Source: Candidatus Aminicenantes bacterium (lineage in GTDB: Bacteria > Acidobacteriota > Aminicenantia > Aminicenantales > Saccharicenantaceae). From it: DNA of 64,000 bases. Position numbers and translations under genes: made by a program. The stretch is from contig JACIYI010000016.1 of assembly GCA_014360005.1 (NCBI GenBank), forward strand, positions 54 to 64,053, given 5' to 3'. Shown piece by piece: positions 1 through 10,431 of the stretch. The notes under the pieces are model-generated. The model worked only from the letters and a program-made list of their open reading frames with translations, was not told the origin of the DNA and searched no databases. Numbering within the stretch: position 1 is the stretch's first letter; every line of letters starts with the position of its first letter.

Positions 1-260
1 CCAGATGTAGTGGTCGGCGGGGGTGTCGTCTGAGTACCGCTTGTGGTCTGGCCGCTCGTTGTCTGCTGAGCCCCAGCCTGCTGGCCAGTGGTCTGTTCAG
101 TTGTCTGGCCGGTTGTGCTTACCTGCTGACCAAGAGCACCACGAACATCACCAGCCTGAGTCCCAGAGGTTGCCCTTTCGGCTCCAGTTGCTGTTTGTTG
201 AGCTCCAGTCGTTGCTGCCTGCCCTCCAGTTGTAGCCACGGCCTGTTGTTCAGGATTTCC
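1..260 (-). repeat. Low-complexity Thr/Gln/Gly-rich coding repeat (linker)
   Basis: Translates to ATTGGQAATTGAQQTATG...TTGQTTEQTTGQQAGAQQTTSGQTTSGTQTTPPPTTTS. Confidence 0.8.
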
Positions 261-1910
261 CTGCGGCTGGGCAGCAGGTAAACCTGCAATTTTCACTCTT
301 AAATTAGATACTGATTCAGCCACTGTCCTTTTATACCCGTCGAGCTTAGCTTCAGGTACTGCTTCATTGTAATCCCTAAGAAATCCTTCAAGTAGTTCTA
401 GTGCTTTCTCATAGTTATCTCGCCGGTTATTCTCCATAGCATCACCTGCTTCTTCGAAAGAGTAACCAGCAGCAACCAAGGCCGAGGGGTTTTTTACCAG
501 CCCATAAACAAGCAGGAATTCTTCTCCGGCCTCCAGGTATTTCCCAGATTCTCTAAGTGTCAAGGCTTGTTCGAACATTTCTCGGGCTTTATCTATATCG
601 GAAATTTTATTAGCCACACCCTGTCGCATATCTGAATAAGCATTTTTTTCTTCAGCCAGCTGCAAAAACATCTTTAGATAAATTTCGGCCTTATCAAAAT
701 CGTAGAGAAATCGTTCGTAAAAATAGGCAACCCTAAAATAATATATCGGGTCGGAACAGGCAGCATAAGCTTTTTTAAACTGGTCAATCGCCTCTAAGTA
801 TTTCTTTTCAACTCCCAGAGCCAGTCCTTTCTGATACAGCTGCTCAGCCCGCCGCTTGTCAGCAGCACTGCAGCCAAAGTTCTCAGCTGAAGTTGTTTGT
901 TGTTCCTGCTGGTTCCAGTCATTCGGTCCACCAGAAGTTTCTTTGGCTGAAACGTCCATAACCAAATCTGGCTTGGGCACCTCTAAACTGCCAAAATAAT
1001 CTTCAGACCAATCATTATATCTATTGATCATCGTTCTGGGCCTGAAGAATGAATGAATGGTGGATGAATTAGCAACCCCGCCTCCGACTGGTACCTTATC
1101 GCACATCAGCTCCAGGATGTGATTATAGGCAGTCTCCAGCAGCTTCTGCATGTTCTCATTCTCGCCAACTATCTCCAGCTGAATTGCTCCTTTTTGACGT
1201 AGCTCCTCCAGCGTCGCCCCCAGGTCAGCCCTGAGTTTCACCACCTTTACCGTCCCCTCCACCGCAGCCTTAATGTCGTGCTGGGTGTATACCTTGTCCC
1301 AGTCCACTTTGAGCTTGGCCTGAAAAGCCGGAGTTATCCCCGAAAATTTCAGCACATACTGCACCGAGACATCTGAAGTCGGGTTCTTAAATGATTCCCA
1401 CAGAAGTGAGGCCCCTTCTTCTGTCAAGGCAATGGAGACCGCCGCCTTCTGCCCCGGCAGAACCGGCGCCTTCCCCTCCCCCACTATCCGCCGGTTGAAA
1501 AGGCCGTCTTTGCCGGCCGTGGCCGAAATTACCTGAAACGTCCCTTCCTTAAACGGAACCGGCCCGGCCAGCTTGGCCTGCGAGTCAATTCCCTTAAGAG
1601 CCGACTCAGCCGAGCTCAGCTCGCCTGAAGTAAACCCCCAGGTCACCAGAAAATGCAGCACCCCGCCCTTGGTCGCCCCGTCAGTCTTGGTGTACTTTAT
1701 AAAGGTAAACTCAGGTGTGCCATCCCTCTTGGTGGCTAAACGCGGCTGGTCAGGGACGTAGTAATACTTATGCGGGTCAGCATGGTCCCGGTAAAATACA
1801 AACCTCCCCGCCTGCACCACTTCCTCCACTGAAACCTCGGCCGCCAGGCGAAGTCCGGCCATTATTAACAGACTGATAATAGCCACAAAAATCATCGATT
1901 TTTTTCTCAT
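1..1910 (-). CDS. Secreted protein of unknown family (cluster gene A), 3'-truncated by window edge; conserved N-terminal domain + TPR-like insert + T/Q/G-rich linker
   Basis: Not in ORF track (no stop in window). Manually translated open frame from ATG 1910: MRKKSMIFVAIISLLIMAGLRLAA-EVSVEEVVQAGRFVFYRDHADPHKYYYVPDQPRLATKRDGTPEFTFIKY...GGVLHFL...AAVSIALTEEG...; clear paralog of 3115..4803; GAGGA SD-like sequence upstream. Confidence 0.9.
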   Translation of the reverse strand, partial: MRKKSMIFVAIISLLIMAGLRLAAEVSVEEVVQAGRFVFYRDHADPHKYYYVPDQPRLATKRDGTPEFTFIKYTKTDGATKGGVLHFLVTWGFTSGELSSAESALKGIDSQAKLAGPVPFKEGTFQVISATAGKDGLFNRRIVGEGKAPVLPGQKAAVSIALTEEGASLLWESFKNPTSDVSVQYVLKFSGITPAFQAKLKVDWDKVYTQHDIKAAVEGTVKVVKLRADLGATLEELRQKGAIQLEIVGENENMQKLLETAYNHILELMCDKVPVGGGVANSSTIHSFFRPRTMINRYNDWSEDYFGSLEVPKPDLVMDVSAKETSGGPNDWNQQEQQTTSAENFGCSAADKRRAEQLYQKGLALGVEKKYLEAIDQFKKAYAACSDPIYYFRVAYFYERFLYDFDKAEIYLKMFLQLAEEKNAYSDMRQGVANKISDIDKAREMFEQALTLRESGKYLEAGEEFLLVYGLVKNPSALVAAGYSFEEAGDAMENNRRDNYEKALELLEGFLRDYNEAVPEAKLDGYKRTVAESVSNLRVKIAGLPAAQPQGNPEQQAVATTGGQAATTGAQQTATGAERATSGTQAGDVRGALGQQVSTTGQTTEQTTGQQAGAQQTTSGQTTSGTQTTPPPTTTS

Positions 1911-2068
1911 TTTCTTCCTCCTTTTGCCAGCAAAACAGCCCAGCCGAAGTGACTCGACTGGTTATAATTATTTTGAATTTCCTGTCTTTTTGACCGTTTC
2001 TCTTTTTGCATTGTTCTACCCGCTTCTATTATTTAGACACCTTTTCTAAGCTTTATATTTTTGCTTCC

Positions 2069-3100
2069 TTATCCCACTGAATTATCCCTGATAACCAGTT
2101 CATAACTTGATAAATCCAGGAAAGCGTTATCACCTTCCTGCCAGTCACTCCGGACCGAACGGCCATCAGCCAGAACTCTGGTTATCCGGTAGCGGTACTT
2201 ACCGCCTTTGGCCTCCGGAACATTAAACTCCAGGTCATACTGTGGTTGACTGTCAGACGAAAAGACGACACTTTTGACATCCTTCTGCCCCCGAGCGGTA
2301 GTGCTTTCCACTTCTACTGCCATCTTAACCACGTCCTTATTCAATCCATTAACGAAATCAAAACAGATGACGCTCATTTTGCGGTAATTAAAAGAAAATT
2401 TCTGTGCCAGGTTAATGACCTTAAAAAGCTCGGGATACTGTTCCATGGACACCGGAACATCCAGGCTCAGGCGACCGCTTCTCTCTCCGGGCTGGAGCCT
2501 GCCTTCCTCGTTTATTTCATAACCGCCGTAGGAAAATTCGCATTCGACACTAAGCCCGGCTGCCTTTTTTTCTTCATAGATTTTCCAGAGGTAAGAAGCT
2601 GATTCCCGGCTCAGAGGAAAGGAGAAGCTTTTCCCGGTCCATAAAACCTTGTTGGAACCCAGGGTTTGGCTTTCGGCCGTGCCTTCTTCTTTCGTTTTCT
2701 CCGCTTCCAGTCCGGTATAACTCAGACTGATTTCCATGGTTTCAATCTGAACCGGGCGGTATTCATACTGAACTCCTTTTTCTCTCTTTAAGACTTCAGA
2801 ATCATCACCAAATTCAACCGATAGAGTCAGCACTCCGCCGGCTGTGGTTTTAGGACCGGCCTCTCCCTGGTCTTTCACAAAGACATACTTGTAAAAGAAG
2901 AAATTTGGCTGGCCAAAGGACTGGCTCAACTGGAGCGCCGTGGGCACATAATAAAAGAGTTTTGGGTTTCTATGGTCCGGATAGATGATAATCCGGCCGG
3001 CTACTGTTTCTGGCCTGGTCAGCACCGGGTCGGCCAGCAAGGAGCCTACGGCCACAGACAGCATCAGGACCAGCAGAAAGGTTCTTCTCCTCAAACCCAA
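2069..3100 (-). CDS. Secreted protein of unknown family (cluster gene B, shortest paralog)
   Basis: Signal peptide (GSLLA-D); IYPDHRNPKLFYYVP..PNFFFYKY..GGVLTLSV motif shared with neighbours; C-terminal YRYRITRVLADGRSVRSDW module. Confidence 0.85.
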   Translation of the reverse strand: MGLRRRTFLLVLMLSVAVGSLLADPVLTRPETVAGRIIIYPDHRNPKLFYYVPTALQLSQSFGQPNFFFYKYVFVKDQGEAGPKTTAGGVLTLSVEFGDDSEVLKREKGVQYEYRPVQIETMEISLSYTGLEAEKTKEEGTAESQTLGSNKVLWTGKSFSFPLSRESASYLWKIYEEKKAAGLSVECEFSYGGYEINEEGRLQPGERSGRLSLDVPVSMEQYPELFKVINLAQKFSFNYRKMSVICFDFVNGLNKDVVKMAVEVESTTARGQKDVKSVVFSSDSQPQYDLEFNVPEAKGGKYRYRITRVLADGRSVRSDWQEGDNAFLDLSSYELVIRDNSVG

Positions 3101-3114
3101 GAGTTTTCTCTCAC

Positions 3115-4803
3115 TTAAAATTTTTCATAATAAGCATAGATAAACGGGTCGGTAGCCTTCTTCCAGCCAGAAGAAATGCGGGTATTGTCCTTGAACAGCC
3201 AGGTTATGTTGTATTCATACTCCAGGTTGTTTGGCTCATGGAAATAGACATAGTTTATGTTAAGAGGCTCTCCCTTGCGCAGAACAACTTCTTTCTGCAG
3301 CTGCCGGCCGAAATTTTTATGCCGGAACTGAACCGCAATCCGGATAATTCCGTTTTTATTCATATTTTCTTCTTCCGCCAGAACCTCAATGTATCTGTAC
3401 TTGTGTGGTGGAGTCAGAGTTATGACCGGCTGACTGGTCTTAATCCAATCTCCGGCCACTTCCAGCCCGCCTACATAACTCCAGATGGGACGATACTCAT
3501 ACTCCAGCCATTTATCGGTCTGGTCACCCTTCCGCCTGTATTTCAGGGAAAGTTTATTGCCGTTCTGACCGAACTTGGTCCGGTCAAAAATCAAATCTTC
3601 AGTAATAGCTTTCATGTCTGCGCTTTCATATTCTTTCTTAAAAGTAATGCCGGCAAAATTAAGGTACTGCTGAAAAGTCTGGAAATCTTCTCCATCCAGA
3701 ATGACGTTAATGGTCCGCTCTTCAAAGGTCGGGTCATCCAGGTCGACCACCGCAAAAAATTCAGGATTATTACCAAGCTGTTTATAAAGCCCTCCGATAT
3801 TGCCGGTCAGAGGAACTTCTCGCTGGTCTCTTTTGCGCCGGGTCAGGTCCACTGTGTACTTGCCGGTTAGCTTGATCTGTTTTCGGTAAAAGCCAAAATG
3901 AGCCTGTCCGAACAACTTGCCCAGCCAGTTAGAACCGGTGGAAGCTTCAGATTTTCCGATGTCCTCGGGTTTTACCGGTTTGGCTTCAAACATCATTTTG
4001 GTAATGGTGTTATAGGCAGTATCAAGAAGTTCATCCATCTTGGTATCTTCGCCTATAACCTCCAGCTTGATGGCCCCCAGTTCTCTCAATTCGGAATAGA
4101 TTTTTTGAATTCTGGCGCTGACGAAAAAGCCACCGACATCGGCCTTAAACTCTTTATGGTCATAAACCTTATTCCAGTCAACAGTTAGCAGGGCATTGTA
4201 GGCCGGGGTCAATCCCTGGTAGGTCATGACAAACTGGACCGAAATATCTGAAGTTGGTTTTTTAAAAGATTCCATCAGCAGGGTTGAGCCCTCTTCAGTC
4301 AGAGCTATAGACACGGCTGCTTCAGAACCGGCCAGAAGCGGAGCTTTGCCTGTTCCAACAACCTTGCGGCTGAAAATACCGCCTTCTCCGGCTGAGGCTG
4401 AAATAAGATGGAATTCACCGGAAGTAAACATCACCGGGCCAACTATTTTGCCGTCTTTATCTATCCTGGTCAGCTCCTGCTCTGCTTTCTCCAACTCCTC
4501 TTTGGTCAGGCCAAAAGTGCAGAGAAAATGCAAAATTCCCCCGGTTATTTCTTTACCGGTACGAACATACTGGATAAAACTGAATTTCGGCCGGCCGTCA
4601 GGCCAGGTAGCAATCCTTGGCGCCAGCGGCATGTAGTGATAGGCATGTTCATCGGCATGGTCACGGAACAGCAGCGCTCCACTGACCTGAATTGGTTCTT
4701 TATCCAGAAGTACTTCAGCCTTCAACGCAGAAAATGCGGTTAAAATAATAAGAACAGAAATTAATAGACAAATCTTACACCTTCTTGCTGCCGAACTAAT
4801 CAT
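3115..4803 (-). CDS. Secreted protein of unknown family (cluster gene C)
   Basis: Signal peptide (SALKA-E); FRDHADEHAYHYMP..PKFSFIQY..GGILHFL; two C-terminal YEY..W beta-sandwich-like repeats; GGAG SD. Confidence 0.9.
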   Translation of the reverse strand: MISSAARRCKICLLISVLIILTAFSALKAEVLLDKEPIQVSGALLFRDHADEHAYHYMPLAPRIATWPDGRPKFSFIQYVRTGKEITGGILHFLCTFGLTKEELEKAEQELTRIDKDGKIVGPVMFTSGEFHLISASAGEGGIFSRKVVGTGKAPLLAGSEAAVSIALTEEGSTLLMESFKKPTSDISVQFVMTYQGLTPAYNALLTVDWNKVYDHKEFKADVGGFFVSARIQKIYSELRELGAIKLEVIGEDTKMDELLDTAYNTITKMMFEAKPVKPEDIGKSEASTGSNWLGKLFGQAHFGFYRKQIKLTGKYTVDLTRRKRDQREVPLTGNIGGLYKQLGNNPEFFAVVDLDDPTFEERTINVILDGEDFQTFQQYLNFAGITFKKEYESADMKAITEDLIFDRTKFGQNGNKLSLKYRRKGDQTDKWLEYEYRPIWSYVGGLEVAGDWIKTSQPVITLTPPHKYRYIEVLAEEENMNKNGIIRIAVQFRHKNFGRQLQKEVVLRKGEPLNINYVYFHEPNNLEYEYNITWLFKDNTRISSGWKKATDPFIYAYYEKF

Positions 4804-4857
4804 TTCTTTCTCCTTTTCCGCCCTTAGTTATAAAAAATAACGCCAGGCTGACTTTTC

Positions 4858-7047
4858 TTAGCGATTAAAAAGATTTTTAAGGTGATAAGGTCCTATGGTC
4901 AGGTCCAAGGAATCGGTCACGGTTTCCCAGCTGGCCGATTCGGCAATTTCCCCTGATTTTAAGACGGCTTTGATTTTGTATTCAAAACTAAACTGCTCGC
5001 CGCTGGACATCGGCAGGTAAACGGTAACCAGCTCTTTAAGTTTGTTCTTGTTAAAATCCATCCCGGTTACCAGTCCGCTGCGGCCCTGGGCGCTGAGATA
5101 GGGAGAGCGAATTTCAACCCGGACTTTTTCCACTTCCAGCGGTGTTTCAAAAGCCGAGGGATCAAACACGCTGGACAGAACTTCTACCTGAAGTTTTCTC
5201 ATTCTTTCAATGTAAGAAACAACTTCAACCTTGCTCCAGATCTTGTCCAGGCAGGGCTGACAGCTAAAATCAGGTTCAATTTCCATCCAGAAACTTCTGG
5301 CATACTGCTTGAAGAAAGCATCCACTTTAGGGCTGGCTGGCTGGCCGACCTCGTCCTTGATCAAAATCTCTTCAGCTTCCTTAACCTTATCCTTATCTAA
5401 TTTTTTCTCTAATTCACCTTTTAAGGCACCCAGGCCCTTTTCCAGGAGTGAACTCTTTTTCTTTGGAGCGGGTGGAGCTGTGGGAAAGGTTTTGCGGTAC
5501 TCGGCCAGGAGAAGACCTCTGGGAGCAAACTGGACTTCCAGGTCCAGGGCTTGTTCGGGCTGAATAACTACTTCTTTCAGACATTTAAGGTTTTTATAAA
5601 CTTCCTCTCCATTTGGTAAGCGGAAGCGCAGGTTGACTGAAGATACCTTTATCGGAAAATCAGACAGGTTTCTGACACCATGAAGATAAAGCACCGAATT
5701 CTTTTCATCTATGGAAAAGCCAAGTTCTTCCACGCCAGAATACCAGCGGCCGGTGAAATACTTTAAACCAACTCTGATGGGAATTTCCCTTTCTACTGTT
5801 CCAGATTTGATTTTCATCCCGGCTGTTAATCCTTCCTTCTCCAGCAGAGGTTTCAGCTCCGCCAGAGTGTCAGGAGTCATGGATATGTTAATCGGAAGCT
5901 CTGTTTCCAGAGAACCGAAGCTCGGAATCCGGATGTTGTCAATTTCCCAGTCCTCCCAGCCCTTCATATCAATAATGGAAGCCTCATCGTAAGGCAGGGA
6001 CATGAGAACGGCCTGTTGTCCCCTGGCCTCCTTCAACGCTTCTTCCATCAACTTGACGTCGTCCGGGTCAACGTTGGCCCGAAGGGTCATAGTGGTCCTG
6101 ACCTTCTGGTCGTTGGTCCAGACCGCACTCAAGCGGTAACCTCCAGCCGCCTTGTCCCTGATCAGGTTGATTTCTCTCGGGAGGTAATAGTAGGTGTTAG
6201 GTTTTTCATTGTCTTTAAAAAGGCGGTTAAGAAGGGTCAACGGCTCTTCTATGGACAGAGGACCAATATCTTCAATTTTATGACGGGGAGGCAGAGCCCC
6301 AGCCGGGTTCAAGCGTATTGGTTTGATGACTGCCGGTTTTACCAGTTGAAGGTTCAATTTCTCTGTCGGCTGCTGGGTAGCTGCGGCCCCGACCTTCACC
6401 TTGCTCATATTCGTTGAAGGACGGACCTTCTGGGCAGATAGCGGCACATAAATGGCGGCCGAAGCCCAGACTGCCCAATCCTGATTGGCCCGGCCAGCAG
6501 CTGAGACCGAAAGTCTGAAATCCACCGTGTTTCCAGCATACGGCGATAAGTCCACAGAAATCTGGTCAAGCTTTCCATCGTGAGAAGCAGCCAATTCTTT
6601 CAATAAAACAGCACCACCACCCAGATTTACCAGAGAAACGTAATACTTAACTCCATCAGTCTGAGTGGCTCCTTTAATAAATCCGACAGAGGCCTTAAAG
6701 GTGGCCCCAGCTGGAATCTTGATACCGGAATAAACGCCAATTATATTTCCATTATTTTTCCACTCGGGGTGAGTTTCCAGAACCAGAGCATACCTGTTGC
6801 CATCTTCCAGCACAACATCGGTCAGGTGACGGGCAAAGCCGCGGCTGTCGTTATCAGCTCCGTTCCAGGGAAGTTCCCCACCAGGAGCCATGGCCCGGTA
6901 CCATTTAGCCTCCGGCGCTTTCTTGACAAAGTCATAGTAGATAACATCGGCTGAAGCCGTGCCGGCAGTTAATAAAAGAATCGCTACTGATAAGGACCAA
7001 AACCAGAAAAACATTAAGCTACTTTTCTCTCGTAATCCAGGCTGCAT
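4858..7047 (-). CDS. Secreted protein (cluster gene D): N-terminal NPCBM/NEW2-like carbohydrate-binding-type domain + divergent cluster-family domain
   Basis: Signal peptide (TASA-D); LETHPEW..GIKIPAGATFKASVGF..TDGVKY..ISVDLSPYAGNTVDFRLSV resembles NPCBM-like jelly-rolls; FKDNEKPNTYYYLP motif; C-terminal FEYKIKAVLKSG...W; AAAGGAG SD. Confidence 0.85.
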   Translation of the reverse strand: MQPGLREKSSLMFFWFWSLSVAILLLTAGTASADVIYYDFVKKAPEAKWYRAMAPGGELPWNGADNDSRGFARHLTDVVLEDGNRYALVLETHPEWKNNGNIIGVYSGIKIPAGATFKASVGFIKGATQTDGVKYYVSLVNLGGGAVLLKELAASHDGKLDQISVDLSPYAGNTVDFRLSVSAAGRANQDWAVWASAAIYVPLSAQKVRPSTNMSKVKVGAAATQQPTEKLNLQLVKPAVIKPIRLNPAGALPPRHKIEDIGPLSIEEPLTLLNRLFKDNEKPNTYYYLPREINLIRDKAAGGYRLSAVWTNDQKVRTTMTLRANVDPDDVKLMEEALKEARGQQAVLMSLPYDEASIIDMKGWEDWEIDNIRIPSFGSLETELPINISMTPDTLAELKPLLEKEGLTAGMKIKSGTVEREIPIRVGLKYFTGRWYSGVEELGFSIDEKNSVLYLHGVRNLSDFPIKVSSVNLRFRLPNGEEVYKNLKCLKEVVIQPEQALDLEVQFAPRGLLLAEYRKTFPTAPPAPKKKSSLLEKGLGALKGELEKKLDKDKVKEAEEILIKDEVGQPASPKVDAFFKQYARSFWMEIEPDFSCQPCLDKIWSKVEVVSYIERMRKLQVEVLSSVFDPSAFETPLEVEKVRVEIRSPYLSAQGRSGLVTGMDFNKNKLKELVTVYLPMSSGEQFSFEYKIKAVLKSGEIAESASWETVTDSLDLTIGPYHLKNLFNR

Positions 7048-7568
7048 TTTATTCTCCTTTCTGGATAAGATTTTTATTCAGTCGGCCAACAGTAAAAAGG
7101 CAGGTATTAAAATTATGGTATGGAAGATGTTAAAGGTTAAGGCGAAAAAAGAGGGGAAAGGAAAAGCTTTCGGTCCCCACTCTTTTCCAGCTCCCTTGGC
7201 TGAGCAGGCATCCCACAGCATAATTAAAATAGCCTTCCTTTTCCTGAATAATCTATCTTAATATCCCATTTTAGGTCAAGTGATTTTTGTCAAGTGCTTT
7301 AATTCCAGGCCTTTATAAGAATTCAATCGAGACCAGTTCTTCTCATAATTTCAAATATCCGGTATTTCTTCTACCTAAACCCTTCAGCCAGTAACCCTGG
7401 CCGTGAGGAAAGATAATCGTTTTTACCACTTTTAAGCTAACTGACCGAAATTTAAGAATCACCATAAACCCCATGTTTCAGGACCGGGAAATCGAGCGGG
7501 GTTAAAAATGTTAATAGTGCAACTTAATTAAAAATTCACTTCTTTAAAAGCTGGGGACAGATTCAGGT

Positions 7569-8136: not shown

Positions 8137-10431
8137 TTATTCTCCGGCAAAGGAAGTGATATTATACCTCAACTCTGATTTTTTGCTGAGCTGCCCGCTG
8201 CTGGCCACAACGCTGATGAGGTATTGACCCGGGGCCACTGGAAGCCAGGTCCAGGTATTATTCTTGGAAGCTTTCCTGACCAGCCGGTCGCGGCCGTCGG
8301 GAGTCCGGAGATAAAATGCATACCTGGGTTTTTCCAGGCCCGGAGCCAGGGCGGTAAATACTATCCTTCGTCCGGCCGGCTGCGGCGACTCTCTCGAAGG
8401 CCTGATGATAACCCGTGGCTCCTTTTTCAGGGCATAGACTAAGCTCAGGTCCTGACGGTAGTCATGACTGCCGGCCAGGAGCCAGTCGCCTATCCTGACC
8501 AGGTCCGTCTTTATTTCGAAGGTCAGAACAGTTTCAGATGTCTTCCGGCCTGTCTTCAGGTCCAGGCCGTACAAGATTTGGCCCGAAGGAATAATCAACT
8601 CCTCTTTCAGGATGGCCGGCCGACAACAGGCTCTGCCCGGCACCGTCTGCCACCAGAGAATATCACCAGCCGATTGTTTCAGCTTATAAATGATCCCGCC
8701 GGTGGTCAGCAGATAGAGATGGCGGCCATCAGAAAGCAGGTGTTGAACCCGCTGGCTGCCCAGGTTAACTTCCCAGCAGATCTTTTTTCTGGACAAGTCA
8801 AAACATTTCACTTTTCCCGAGGTCGTGCTGAAGTAAATCTTTGGTCCCCAGGCCGGCAGGAAGGTCCCGAATTCATCCTGGAAGTCGTGTTGGTCTATTT
8901 TCCGGCCTGTCTCCAGGCTACACCTGAGGAGCCGCCCTGAAAGGCAGGGAACCAGAACCTCCGAACTGTAAATGATAAGCGGCCCGGAAAATTCCGCTGG
9001 AAGCTCCTGTTTCCAGAGTAATTCGGCCGTTTCAGTCGAGCGAGCTTCAAGACTTTTCTTAAAAGGCAAAAGCAGCCGGTTTCCGGACTCGGCCGGGGCC
9101 CCGGCCAGAGGTTCAGCCAGCTCCACCTGAGTTCCTGCCTTTATTCCAGAAGAACTCAGCCCCCACAGCTTCCCGTCAGAGACCAGCCAGAAGCCAGCTC
9201 TTCCCGGGACCGGTTTTTGCTCAAGTTTTATTTCCAGGAGGCCGGAGCCCTTCTTTTCCCCGGACTGAACTTCAATTAATTCGTAAGCCGGTTGATTATT
9301 TTCATAAAACCACCAGAGCCTGTCCCCATAAGGCACCAGATGATTGACCCGGCCACGGGCAAAGTTGACCCAGCCCCTGGTCAAGGAAAACAGGTAACTC
9401 TCCTCCGGAGCTTGCCCCACAGCTCCCCTGCCCCCTTCATCCTTCCGGGTCTGGGGCCGGTTTATATTCTCAGCCGTTTGACGCGAGCCGGTGCCATCTG
9501 CTATCAGCCGGGATGGTCTCATCTCTTCCGGTTTATCAGGTGACTGAACTGGAGCCAGGCTAAACGCTGTTTCTTTTCCGGCCGCTTGAATAACAGCTCG
9601 CTCCCTGTGCTTTTCTGGTTCTGACCGACCCGCTGAAAGAAGCTCATCTATCCTGACCAGAGCGTAGCCCCGGGCAGTCAGTTCTTCTATTAGTTCCCCC
9701 AGCCGGAAATAGAACAGGTCGGTTCTCTCCGCTGCCGTCCCGAGATGGACCAATAGAATAAAACCGTTGAGTCCGTCCGGCGACCTGGTCTCGTATTCAA
9801 GCAGCTGGTTTAGAATTTCTTCAGACGAGCGATAATTGGGCTGGTCCGGAGTGGTGTAATCGGAGCTGGTTACAAGACCGGGAGTGAAATTTATCACTGC
9901 CACTCCAACCTCCGCGGCCCAGCCGGCGATTTCCTGGTTATACCATTCATAGGGTGGCATAAAATAGCGGGCCCGGTCTCTGCTCACCCCGAATTTTTCC
10001 AGCTCCAGGTAATTATTTGCCAGGTCGGTCATAAACTCTTCCTTCGTGACCAGGGTTTTCTGCCGGTCCTGCCAGTCGCAATAAAGAAGATGGCGGTCGG
10101 AATGAGGGCCCAGGTAATGTCCGTCCTCAACCATTTTCTCTATCCAGCCGCGGAATTCAGGTTGACGCAAAAAATTGCCGGTGAAGAAAAAAGAGGCTTT
10201 AAGCTTTCGCTGCCTTAATTCCGACAGGATGTATTCAGCCCCCTCCCCGTAATAATCCGCAGTAAAGACCAGAGCCAGCTGATTTCGGTCGCGGGGGCCA
10301 CGAATTATCCCGCCCTGCTCCAGGGTCAGGGTCTGGGCCGAAATGAAATCCGCTAAAAACAACACCACCAGGAATAAGCCGACCGATAAGGACGGAAGTC
10401 CTGCTCTTTTTCTAACTGGTGGCCTGGCCAT
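8137..10431 (-). CDS. Secreted polysaccharide deacetylase (NodB/CE4) fused to PQQ-like beta-propeller and C-terminal Ig-like domain
   Basis: LVFTAD, HSDRH, FMPPYE, ILLVH CE4 motifs; repeated (T/S)G..W propeller blades; YAFY...TWTWLP..PGQYLISV C-terminus. Confidence 0.8.
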   Translation of the reverse strand: MARPPVRKRAGLPSLSVGLFLVVLFLADFISAQTLTLEQGGIIRGPRDRNQLALVFTADYYGEGAEYILSELRQRKLKASFFFTGNFLRQPEFRGWIEKMVEDGHYLGPHSDRHLLYCDWQDRQKTLVTKEEFMTDLANNYLELEKFGVSRDRARYFMPPYEWYNQEIAGWAAEVGVAVINFTPGLVTSSDYTTPDQPNYRSSEEILNQLLEYETRSPDGLNGFILLVHLGTAAERTDLFYFRLGELIEELTARGYALVRIDELLSAGRSEPEKHRERAVIQAAGKETAFSLAPVQSPDKPEEMRPSRLIADGTGSRQTAENINRPQTRKDEGGRGAVGQAPEESYLFSLTRGWVNFARGRVNHLVPYGDRLWWFYENNQPAYELIEVQSGEKKGSGLLEIKLEQKPVPGRAGFWLVSDGKLWGLSSSGIKAGTQVELAEPLAGAPAESGNRLLLPFKKSLEARSTETAELLWKQELPAEFSGPLIIYSSEVLVPCLSGRLLRCSLETGRKIDQHDFQDEFGTFLPAWGPKIYFSTTSGKVKCFDLSRKKICWEVNLGSQRVQHLLSDGRHLYLLTTGGIIYKLKQSAGDILWWQTVPGRACCRPAILKEELIIPSGQILYGLDLKTGRKTSETVLTFEIKTDLVRIGDWLLAGSHDYRQDLSLVYALKKEPRVIIRPSRESPQPAGRRIVFTALAPGLEKPRYAFYLRTPDGRDRLVRKASKNNTWTWLPVAPGQYLISVVASSGQLSKKSELRYNITSFAGE

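Follow-up and report, generated by a model that had tools for sequence, protein, structure and literature searches.

A recurrent cassette of divergent paralogous genes for putatively exported proteins of an unnamed family in Candidatus Aminicenantes and other bacteria

Genes, shared domains and the variable middle of D

At one end of a 64,000-nucleotide stretch of DNA from a Candidatus Aminicenantes bacterium (GenBank assembly GCA_014360005.1, contig JACIYI010000016.1, positions 54 to 64,053; this whole stretch is hereafter the window) lies a cassette of neighbouring genes, A, B, C and D, all co-oriented on the minus strand. A first-pass annotation, made from the sequence alone, had listed four co-oriented genes of 729, 562, 343 and more than 636 aa with gaps of 54, 14 and 158 bp, and the open reading frames (ORFs) match these figures. 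Gene A (4858..7047; all genes and domains placed by coordinates in the window are on the minus strand) codes for 729 aa, arranged as a signal peptide, a lineage-specific beta-rich N-terminal region, a P/T/K-rich linker, a probable divergent BN-like domain (BN being the N-terminal domain shared by the family), a K/E-rich helix and a C-terminal beta module. Gene B (3115..4803, 562 aa) consists of a signal peptide, BN and a C-terminal part, BC, with two immunoglobulin-like (Ig-like) beta-sandwiches, and gene C (2069..3100, 343 aa) of a signal peptide, a BN-like N-terminal stretch of ~200 aa, a middle part of its own and a C-terminal beta module. A and C are orthologous to the genes that stand first and second in the cassettes of other phyla. 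Gene D, or D1 (1..1910, ORF 3-1910), runs off the end of the contig and thus lacks its 3' end; its more than 636 aa comprise a signal peptide, BN, a middle containing tetratricopeptide repeats (TPR) and a T/G/Q/P-rich linker, and its full-length relatives, of 880-990 aa, carry BC at their end.

By inspection, the N-termini of A to D each have a basic n-region, a hydrophobic h-region and an AxA-like site (TASA/DV, ALKA/EV, SLLA/DP and RLAA/EV), so that the Sec-type signal peptide proposed for each protein at first reading was found again, and export of the cassette products by the Sec route seems probable. The ESM Atlas entry for B starts at residue 27, read as M, a gene call that would drop the signal peptide; the longer form of B is covered by full-length homologues.

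BN, the core alpha/beta domain common to the paralogs, was defined on residues ~30-285 of B (~255 aa; 3949..4716), and BC on residues ~300-562 (3118..3906), in which tandem Ig-like beta-sandwiches each end in a YEY..W motif. Judged by sequence comparison, paralogy within the cassette is uneven: strong for B, D and a further gene, E, described below, which have both BN and BC in common, clear for the BN part of C, and of moderate confidence for A. B and D align at 48% identity over 275 aa (E=1e-83), and this is the true pair behind the close alignment of about 250 aa (GKAP..AAVSIALTEEG..ESFK.PTSD.SVQ) that had at first been ascribed to A and C; the motif P.F.F..Y...GG.L, assigned at the same time to A, B and C, is carried by B, C and D and not by A. 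C matches the B family over its N-terminal ~100-200 aa only (BLASTP E=5e-7; hhalign 98.8%, E=1e-16). For A, BLASTP against B or C returned the short entry motif only (E~0.1), and hhalign against a narrow alignment of the C family gave no significant match (37%). Against a 150-sequence BN alignment, hhalign matched A at 82.6% (E=9.6e-6, 248 columns, ~A 262-543 on BN 3-281), which points to a probable BN-like domain at 5419..6264 (residues ~262-543), starting at the entry motif FKDNEKPNTYYYLP.

The first-pass annotation had correctly placed the entry motifs and, at the C-terminus, those of the YEY..W type. As for the shared C-terminal beta-rich module that it proposed, the motifs are in place, with only modest support for homology: a hidden Markov model (HMM) of BC matches C at residues ~237-327 (E=6e-5), the A-like HMM of other phyla matches C at 5.8e-5 and E at 3.8e-4, and the A-like family aligns with BC at 79.5% by hhalign. 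Its description of four paralogs stands for B, C and D, and had to be amended in that the cluster comprises five or six genes and A is a moderately supported member. In the 150-sequence alignment, BN positions with at least 80% conservation are mostly occupied by G, P and aromatic residues; H92, S135, S165, D186 and S188 are conserved in 84-99% of the sequences.

Searches for a known relative were negative. Pfam and NCBIfam scans gave nothing significant for A, B and C and only a sub-threshold TPR match for D1; a Pfam scan of A-D at E<=1 returned chance-level matches with no pilin or pore-former family, and in PHROGs and PADLOC, too, the matches were at chance level. When 50 diverse members of the family were compared with Pfam, significant matches came from TPR families only (TPR_1 in 3/50), besides scattered single matches at E of 0.002 or worse. 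TPR in D aside, the family is thus as unrecognised by these four databases as had been claimed. The homologues of A (n=131) are all unnamed or 'hypothetical' and those of B (n=85) and C (n=107) are unnamed; where any homologue bears a name, it is 'hypothetical protein' or 'TPR repeat protein', and RefSeq labels every product of the Tenacibaculum xiamenense cassette 'hypothetical protein'. In the open full-text literature, as represented by listings and the beginnings of abstracts, with subscription journals and supplements outside the scope, nothing on this cassette was found.

The picture from predicted structure is similar. The AlphaFold2 model of the whole of B, a two-domain model, has a mean predicted local distance difference test score (pLDDT) of 80 and a predicted TM-score (pTM) of 0.53, with the secondary structure of BC all beta, and the model of BN alone reaches a pLDDT of 82 and a pTM of 0.62. 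Foldseek found no match to the BN model at E<=0.001 in PDB (best TM-score, TMq, 0.24) or in BFVD, the comparison covering solved and viral structures, respectively. With the whole-B model, the matches listed are generic arrays of Ig, FN3 and MG domains, at E down to 7e-8 and TMq of 0.09-0.17, including 6xi3 (E=7e-8), complement C5 and the pilin 3gle. A sequence-profile search of PDB with the B family gave a single match at E=0.85, and in the ESM Atlas the closest clusters were unnamed 'hypothetical protein' sets, with no usable BN match among named clusters. BN is, within these searches, a ~255-residue alpha/beta domain with neither a named family nor a solved relative.

The contig on which the window lies, C8, begins 53 bases ahead of it, and the cluster had been suspected to run past this edge. 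A whole-genome search did find further members at the end of another contig, C5: a B-like gene of 566 aa, E, and a probable second D gene (D2), a frame of 748 aa that lacks its 5' end and in which the tail of a BN is followed by a TPR region, a T/G/Q-rich linker and BC. At the DNA level, C8:1-131 is 98.5% identical to a stretch inside the D copy of C5, and C8:1136-1342 is 95.7% identical to the extreme end of C5. The ~1 kb between them has no DNA similarity to C5, and the proteins there, the middles of D1 and D2, are 37% identical. The assembly broke in a repeat, namely the low-complexity T/G/Q/P-rich linker of D, placed by translation at 3..275, whose DNA contains short tandem repeats at 37-65 and 81-116.

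The window was also compared with contigs from X1, X2 and X3, three DNA runs that belong to two studies and of which X1 may be the source sample. In these runs, respectively, unitig depth, which does not equal copy number, was 33, 122 and 86-88 for the A-B-C region, 76, ~300 and 197 for the BN region of D, 41, 146 and 102 for the window's D middle, and 45, 148 and 100 for a contig joining the same flanks through different letters. Two strains behind this fork are less likely than two tandem D genes, since the depth of A-B-C matches that of one middle and not the sum of the two. There is consequently a strong hint, short of proof, that each genome carries two tandem D genes with different middles; in the related genome L015, two tandem D genes of 937 and 961 aa, 70% identical, are present. 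The full order of the cassette is A-B-C-D1(-D2)-E, of which the window holds the first four genes.

Comparison with D2 and with the related locus L053 revealed that the TPR-containing middle of D (residues ~300-560; 231..1013) is hypervariable. Identity to L053 is 91% for A, 97% for B, 93% for C and 94% for E, and within D it is 96% for the BN part, 98% for the BC part and 28%, across 193 alignable residues, for the middle. The D2 middle is 23-26% identical to the D genes of six out of seven relatives and finds no match in the seventh. In D2, TPR motifs exceed the Pfam gathering score (TPR_1, 30.9 bits with a cut-off of 27.8; TPR_2, 28.3 with a cut-off of 27), and the TPR score of D1, 19.2 bits, lies below it. 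In other phyla, one paralog lineage has inserts of 103-297 residues at the orthologous position between BN and BC. The BN-BC junction of D appears from these alignments to be one site of the cassette at which sequence is exchanged and not conserved. In Lacihabitans, an A-like protein (L049:15280-17661) begins with three DUF7452 domains (Pfam E=1e-61), an N-terminus different from that of the window's A, so the N-terminal part of A-like proteins seems exchangeable too.

Recurrence of the cassette across phyla

Among protein clusters formed at 50% identity, a profile of the B family matched 2196 at E<=1e-3 and, at the stricter threshold of E<=1e-30, 574. Scanning a genome collection, we retrieved 78 loci, 34 of the Aminicenantes type and 44 from other groups: Bacteroidota (including the cultured Tenacibaculum, Flavivirga, Dawidia, Parachryseolinea and Lacihabitans), Gemmatimonadota, Verrucomicrobiota, Dormiibacterota, Spirochaetales (Spirochaetota), Deltaproteobacteria (Myxococcota/Thermodesulfobacteriota) and Thermoanaerobaculia. 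Counted with HMMs of BN, BC, A and C, at least two family ORFs occur in 77, at least three in 73 and at least four in 67 of the 78 loci, many of which are cut by contig ends and each of which has at least one member by construction, all having been retrieved with a B-family pattern. Family genes are co-oriented at every locus, and the sole singleton lies on a contig of 1.9 kb; the expectation that homologues recur as multi-gene clusters and not as singletons is upheld by the 73 loci with three or more co-oriented family ORFs.

The Aminicenantes gene order, A-B-C-D-E, has a counterpart elsewhere that typically runs A-like gene, C-like gene, two BN+BC genes, a short BN-only gene, a gene of ~250 aa and two more BN+BC genes. 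HMMs built solely from the genes at these first two positions in other phyla recognise the window's A (E=1e-31, over residues ~277-472 and ~580-728) and C (8e-40), respectively. Defined as an A-like gene, a C-like gene and at least three BN+BC genes, all co-oriented, the cassette is present in the window plus C5, with A, B, C, D and E. In some Aminicenantes cassettes (L032, L037, L071), E is followed by a sixth gene of ~310-316 aa that has BN only (E~1e-36 to 1e-38); it is absent from the window's genome. In some metagenome-assembled genomes A is split into two overlapping frames (L012:199-2398, L018:7734-9981), and one B gene (G069) has an internal TAA, which may reflect either assembly errors or decaying copies.

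A quick maximum-likelihood tree was built with IQ-TREE from 69 BN..BC proteins of 19 sources, the window's D being left out because it is split over two contigs. It contains four paralog clades with support of 99-100, each mostly with one member per genome and drawn from several phyla, which argues for old paralogs kept side by side. The earlier notion of retained divergent paralogs gains from this, as four lineages found once per genome across phyla fit non-redundant subunits. Within these clades, the binned Spirochaetales locus L064 and the binned Deltaproteobacteria locus L068 are mutual nearest relatives, with end branches of 0.11-0.35; their closeness means that either the cassette has recently been transferred as a whole or one of the two was wrongly binned. 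The superfamily extends to Alphaproteobacteria: the 900-kb plasmid p2 of Pararhizobium qamdonense carries a divergent block (L086, 821721-836324) of seven co-oriented 'hypothetical protein' genes, in which at least four ORFs have a divergent BN (best E=2e-36).

Outside Aminicenantes, the cassettes often contain additional genes. An exported protein of ~250 aa is encoded inside Bacteroidota cassettes at 19 loci (L046:12430-13134, L076:9133-9921 and 17 more), with invariant His40 and Cys165 (GHxGIA ... NCxDFV) and weak hints of PPPDE/Peptidase_C97 (PDB 3ebq, E=0.24; Pfam in 1/15 members, E=0.01). At the end of many cassettes stands an exported HExxH protein of ~500 aa, in two sub-families (10 + 7 loci, e.g., L046:17293-18771 and L063:17038-18492) that are mutually related (hhalign 99%); over 14 sequences H204 is invariant and E201 present in at least 90%, and neither Pfam nor PDB gave a match. 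A secreted Peptidase_C70, an AvrRpt2-like papain fold, directly follows the cassette at six loci (L076:13937-14626 and five others), in some Bacteroidales among others, and the one member scanned scored 64.5 bits in Pfam (E=1e-17, cut-off 19). These peptidase-like genes suggest proteolytic maturation or enzymatic cargo in the lineages concerned. An HMM search of the window's genome found none of the ~250-aa His/Cys, HExxH or Peptidase_C70 genes.

Presence of the family is patchy. It occurs in 16/151 sampled genomes of the window's class (14/113 of high quality) and in 5/10 of its genus, where the five genomes lacking it are all at least 90% complete. The genes flanking the cassette in the window code for an HD-domain protein, MgsA, DUF456 and a polysaccharide deacetylase that has a BamB-like propeller; they recur at no more than seven of the 34 Aminicenantes loci, all from close relatives. 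Since the flanks are common to close relatives only and presence is patchy, the cassette behaves as a conserved unit and not as a housekeeping part of the envelope, and the best explanation is that it is self-contained and horizontally exchanged.

One structure or separate proteins

Taken together, we favour, with a probability of roughly 0.45, the reading that the cassette products assemble, each as a non-redundant subunit, into one hetero-oligomeric structure outside the cytoplasm, whose specificity would lie in a swappable TPR module. It is suggested by the old paralogs standing side by side, their fixed co-orientation and tight spacing and the autonomy of the cassette, and also by the lack of a catalytic signature, the Ig-like spacers and the single exchangeable module. 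The structure would sit in the periplasm or on the cell surface; contacts from BN to BN would hold the paralogs together, BC and the low-complexity linkers would act as spacers, and the TPR module between BN and BC of D would be the exchangeable binding or specificity part. Export, co-assembly, location and the role of the TPR are here all inferred. The wider proposal, that this is a new class of surface or envelope assembly in which 4-7 old BN-fold paralogs move between phyla as a unit and take their specificity from an exchangeable inserted module, is put forward with more reserve and is rather doubtful.

Several points weigh against assembly into one structure. No physical or predicted interface between the paralogs is known; a complex prediction for B (28-562) and C (24-343) scored 0.00 in two runs without controls and is evidence neither way. 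Nothing recognisable as a secretin, usher, outer-membrane barrel or ATPase is encoded in the cassette, which leaves transport to the cell surface without an explanation. In the tree, B, D and E of Aminicenantes form a separate clade (support 97) and are therefore not one-to-one orthologs of the four lineages found elsewhere, and duplication within a single lineage would also be compatible with functional diversification in the absence of assembly. The conserved His, Ser and Asp residues of BN could mark an active site. The family membership of A, moderately likely as it appears, hangs on the hhalign match to the 150-sequence BN alignment, and the narrow B-family alignment gave A a non-significant 3%. 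Likewise to be counted here are the limits given above on the unitig depths, with X1 as a possible source sample, and on the loci retrieved by a B-family pattern.

The products may instead be independent secreted binding proteins or adhesins that arose by duplication, each with its own ligand, their clustering being due to tandem duplication and co-regulation. The lineage-specific clade of B, D and E, the resemblance of the variable TPR insert and the duplicated D to ligand diversification, the frequency of Ig-like tandems in adhesins and the patchy presence within class and genus all speak for such binders; we nevertheless regard them as unlikely, for the four lineages, together with the A-like and C-like genes, are kept once per genome and in similar order in several phyla, which is not expected from free duplication and loss. 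Stalks of Ig-like or MG domains, as in large adhesins (6xi3 is an adhesin extender), Gram-positive pilins and alpha2-macroglobulin/complement, resemble BC in their tandem beta-sandwiches, but the TM-scores to the BC-bearing model are only 0.09-0.17 and those families lack BN. With periplasmic TPR scaffold proteins D shares the repeats, and relatives are annotated as 'TPR repeat protein'; it differs from them in that its TPR is an insert between two unrelated conserved domains and hypervariable between near-identical strains. Less probable again is that BN is an enzyme domain, for example a His/Ser/Asp hydrolase, with the paralogs as isozymes acting on envelope or extracellular polymers: the five conserved polar residues would suit this, yet no enzyme family or fold was matched and most of the conserved columns are Gly, Pro or aromatic, and among the explanations considered here we give it the least credence.

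Two further explanations draw on the peptidase-like genes of other phyla. In one of them, the BN/BC paralogs would oligomerise on a target membrane as a multi-component membrane-attacking toxin or translocon, with the peptidase-like genes (Peptidase_C70, HExxH and His/Cys families) as cargo or activators; the accessory, patchy distribution of the cassette in very different phyla suits it, and multi-component pore-forming or binary toxins, which also have co-encoded related secreted components, offer an analogy. We think it improbable, as no pore-former was matched in Pfam and no pore-former fold is among the PDB matches listed, the membrane-attack-complex entries in that list match the whole-B model at low TM, in our reading through the Ig/MG-like BC part, no amphipathic hairpin was identified, and the window's genome has no peptidase-like genes, so that its cassette lacks an enzyme partner. 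In the other, shaft, adaptor, tip and anchor would be tandem paralogs of a pilus-like fibre assembled by strand exchange in the type V manner and matured by a protease. Type V pilus operons of Bacteroidota (fimA-E, mfa1-5) are likewise accessory sets of 5-8 tandem co-oriented genes for related, exported, beta-rich proteins; the cassette shares this organisation and the beta-sandwich content, has conserved beta strands right after the signal peptide and at the C-terminus, and in Bacteroidota includes cysteine-peptidase-like genes. It departs from them in having no lipobox cysteine at the cleavage site in A to E (by inspection), no Pfam pilin family in A-D, no FimA/Mfa among the PDB matches listed for the whole-B or BN models and, in Aminicenantes, no peptidase gene, and further in its alpha/beta BN core without a solved relative and in a range of many phyla, not Bacteroidota alone. 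Such a fibre seems to us slightly more improbable than a toxin.

New in this analysis are four old lineages of paralogs, the finding that A and C are orthologous to the genes which open the cassette elsewhere, its patchy distribution even among members of one genus and the duplicated, hypervariable TPR middle of D. Should the paralogs indeed form a single structure, it would add to envelope or surface biology a widespread element described in no database and built on a domain without a solved relative. Cultured carriers, in Bacteroidota and an Alphaproteobacterium, make the cassette open to bench study, and the hypervariable, duplicated TPR module points to the recognition of a changing partner, which offers a handle on function.

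Minor features around the cassette

Consensus scans gave, on the minus strand, a weak terminator-like hairpin at 1940..1961, in the 158-bp gap between C and D (3 such sites were found, with 9.1 expected), and two weak sigma-70-like promoter matches upstream of A, within 7112..7279 (9/12 each). Two genes upstream of A, also on the minus strand, the polysaccharide deacetylase with its BamB-like pyrroloquinoline quinone (PQQ) propeller (8137-10431) is an exported protein of 764 aa. Its variation among close relatives is unusual: it is 90% identical to its counterpart at L008, 73% to that at L013 and 50-52% to those at L009, L014, L015 and L053, and its neighbours, the HD protein and MgsA, stay at 88-99% identity.

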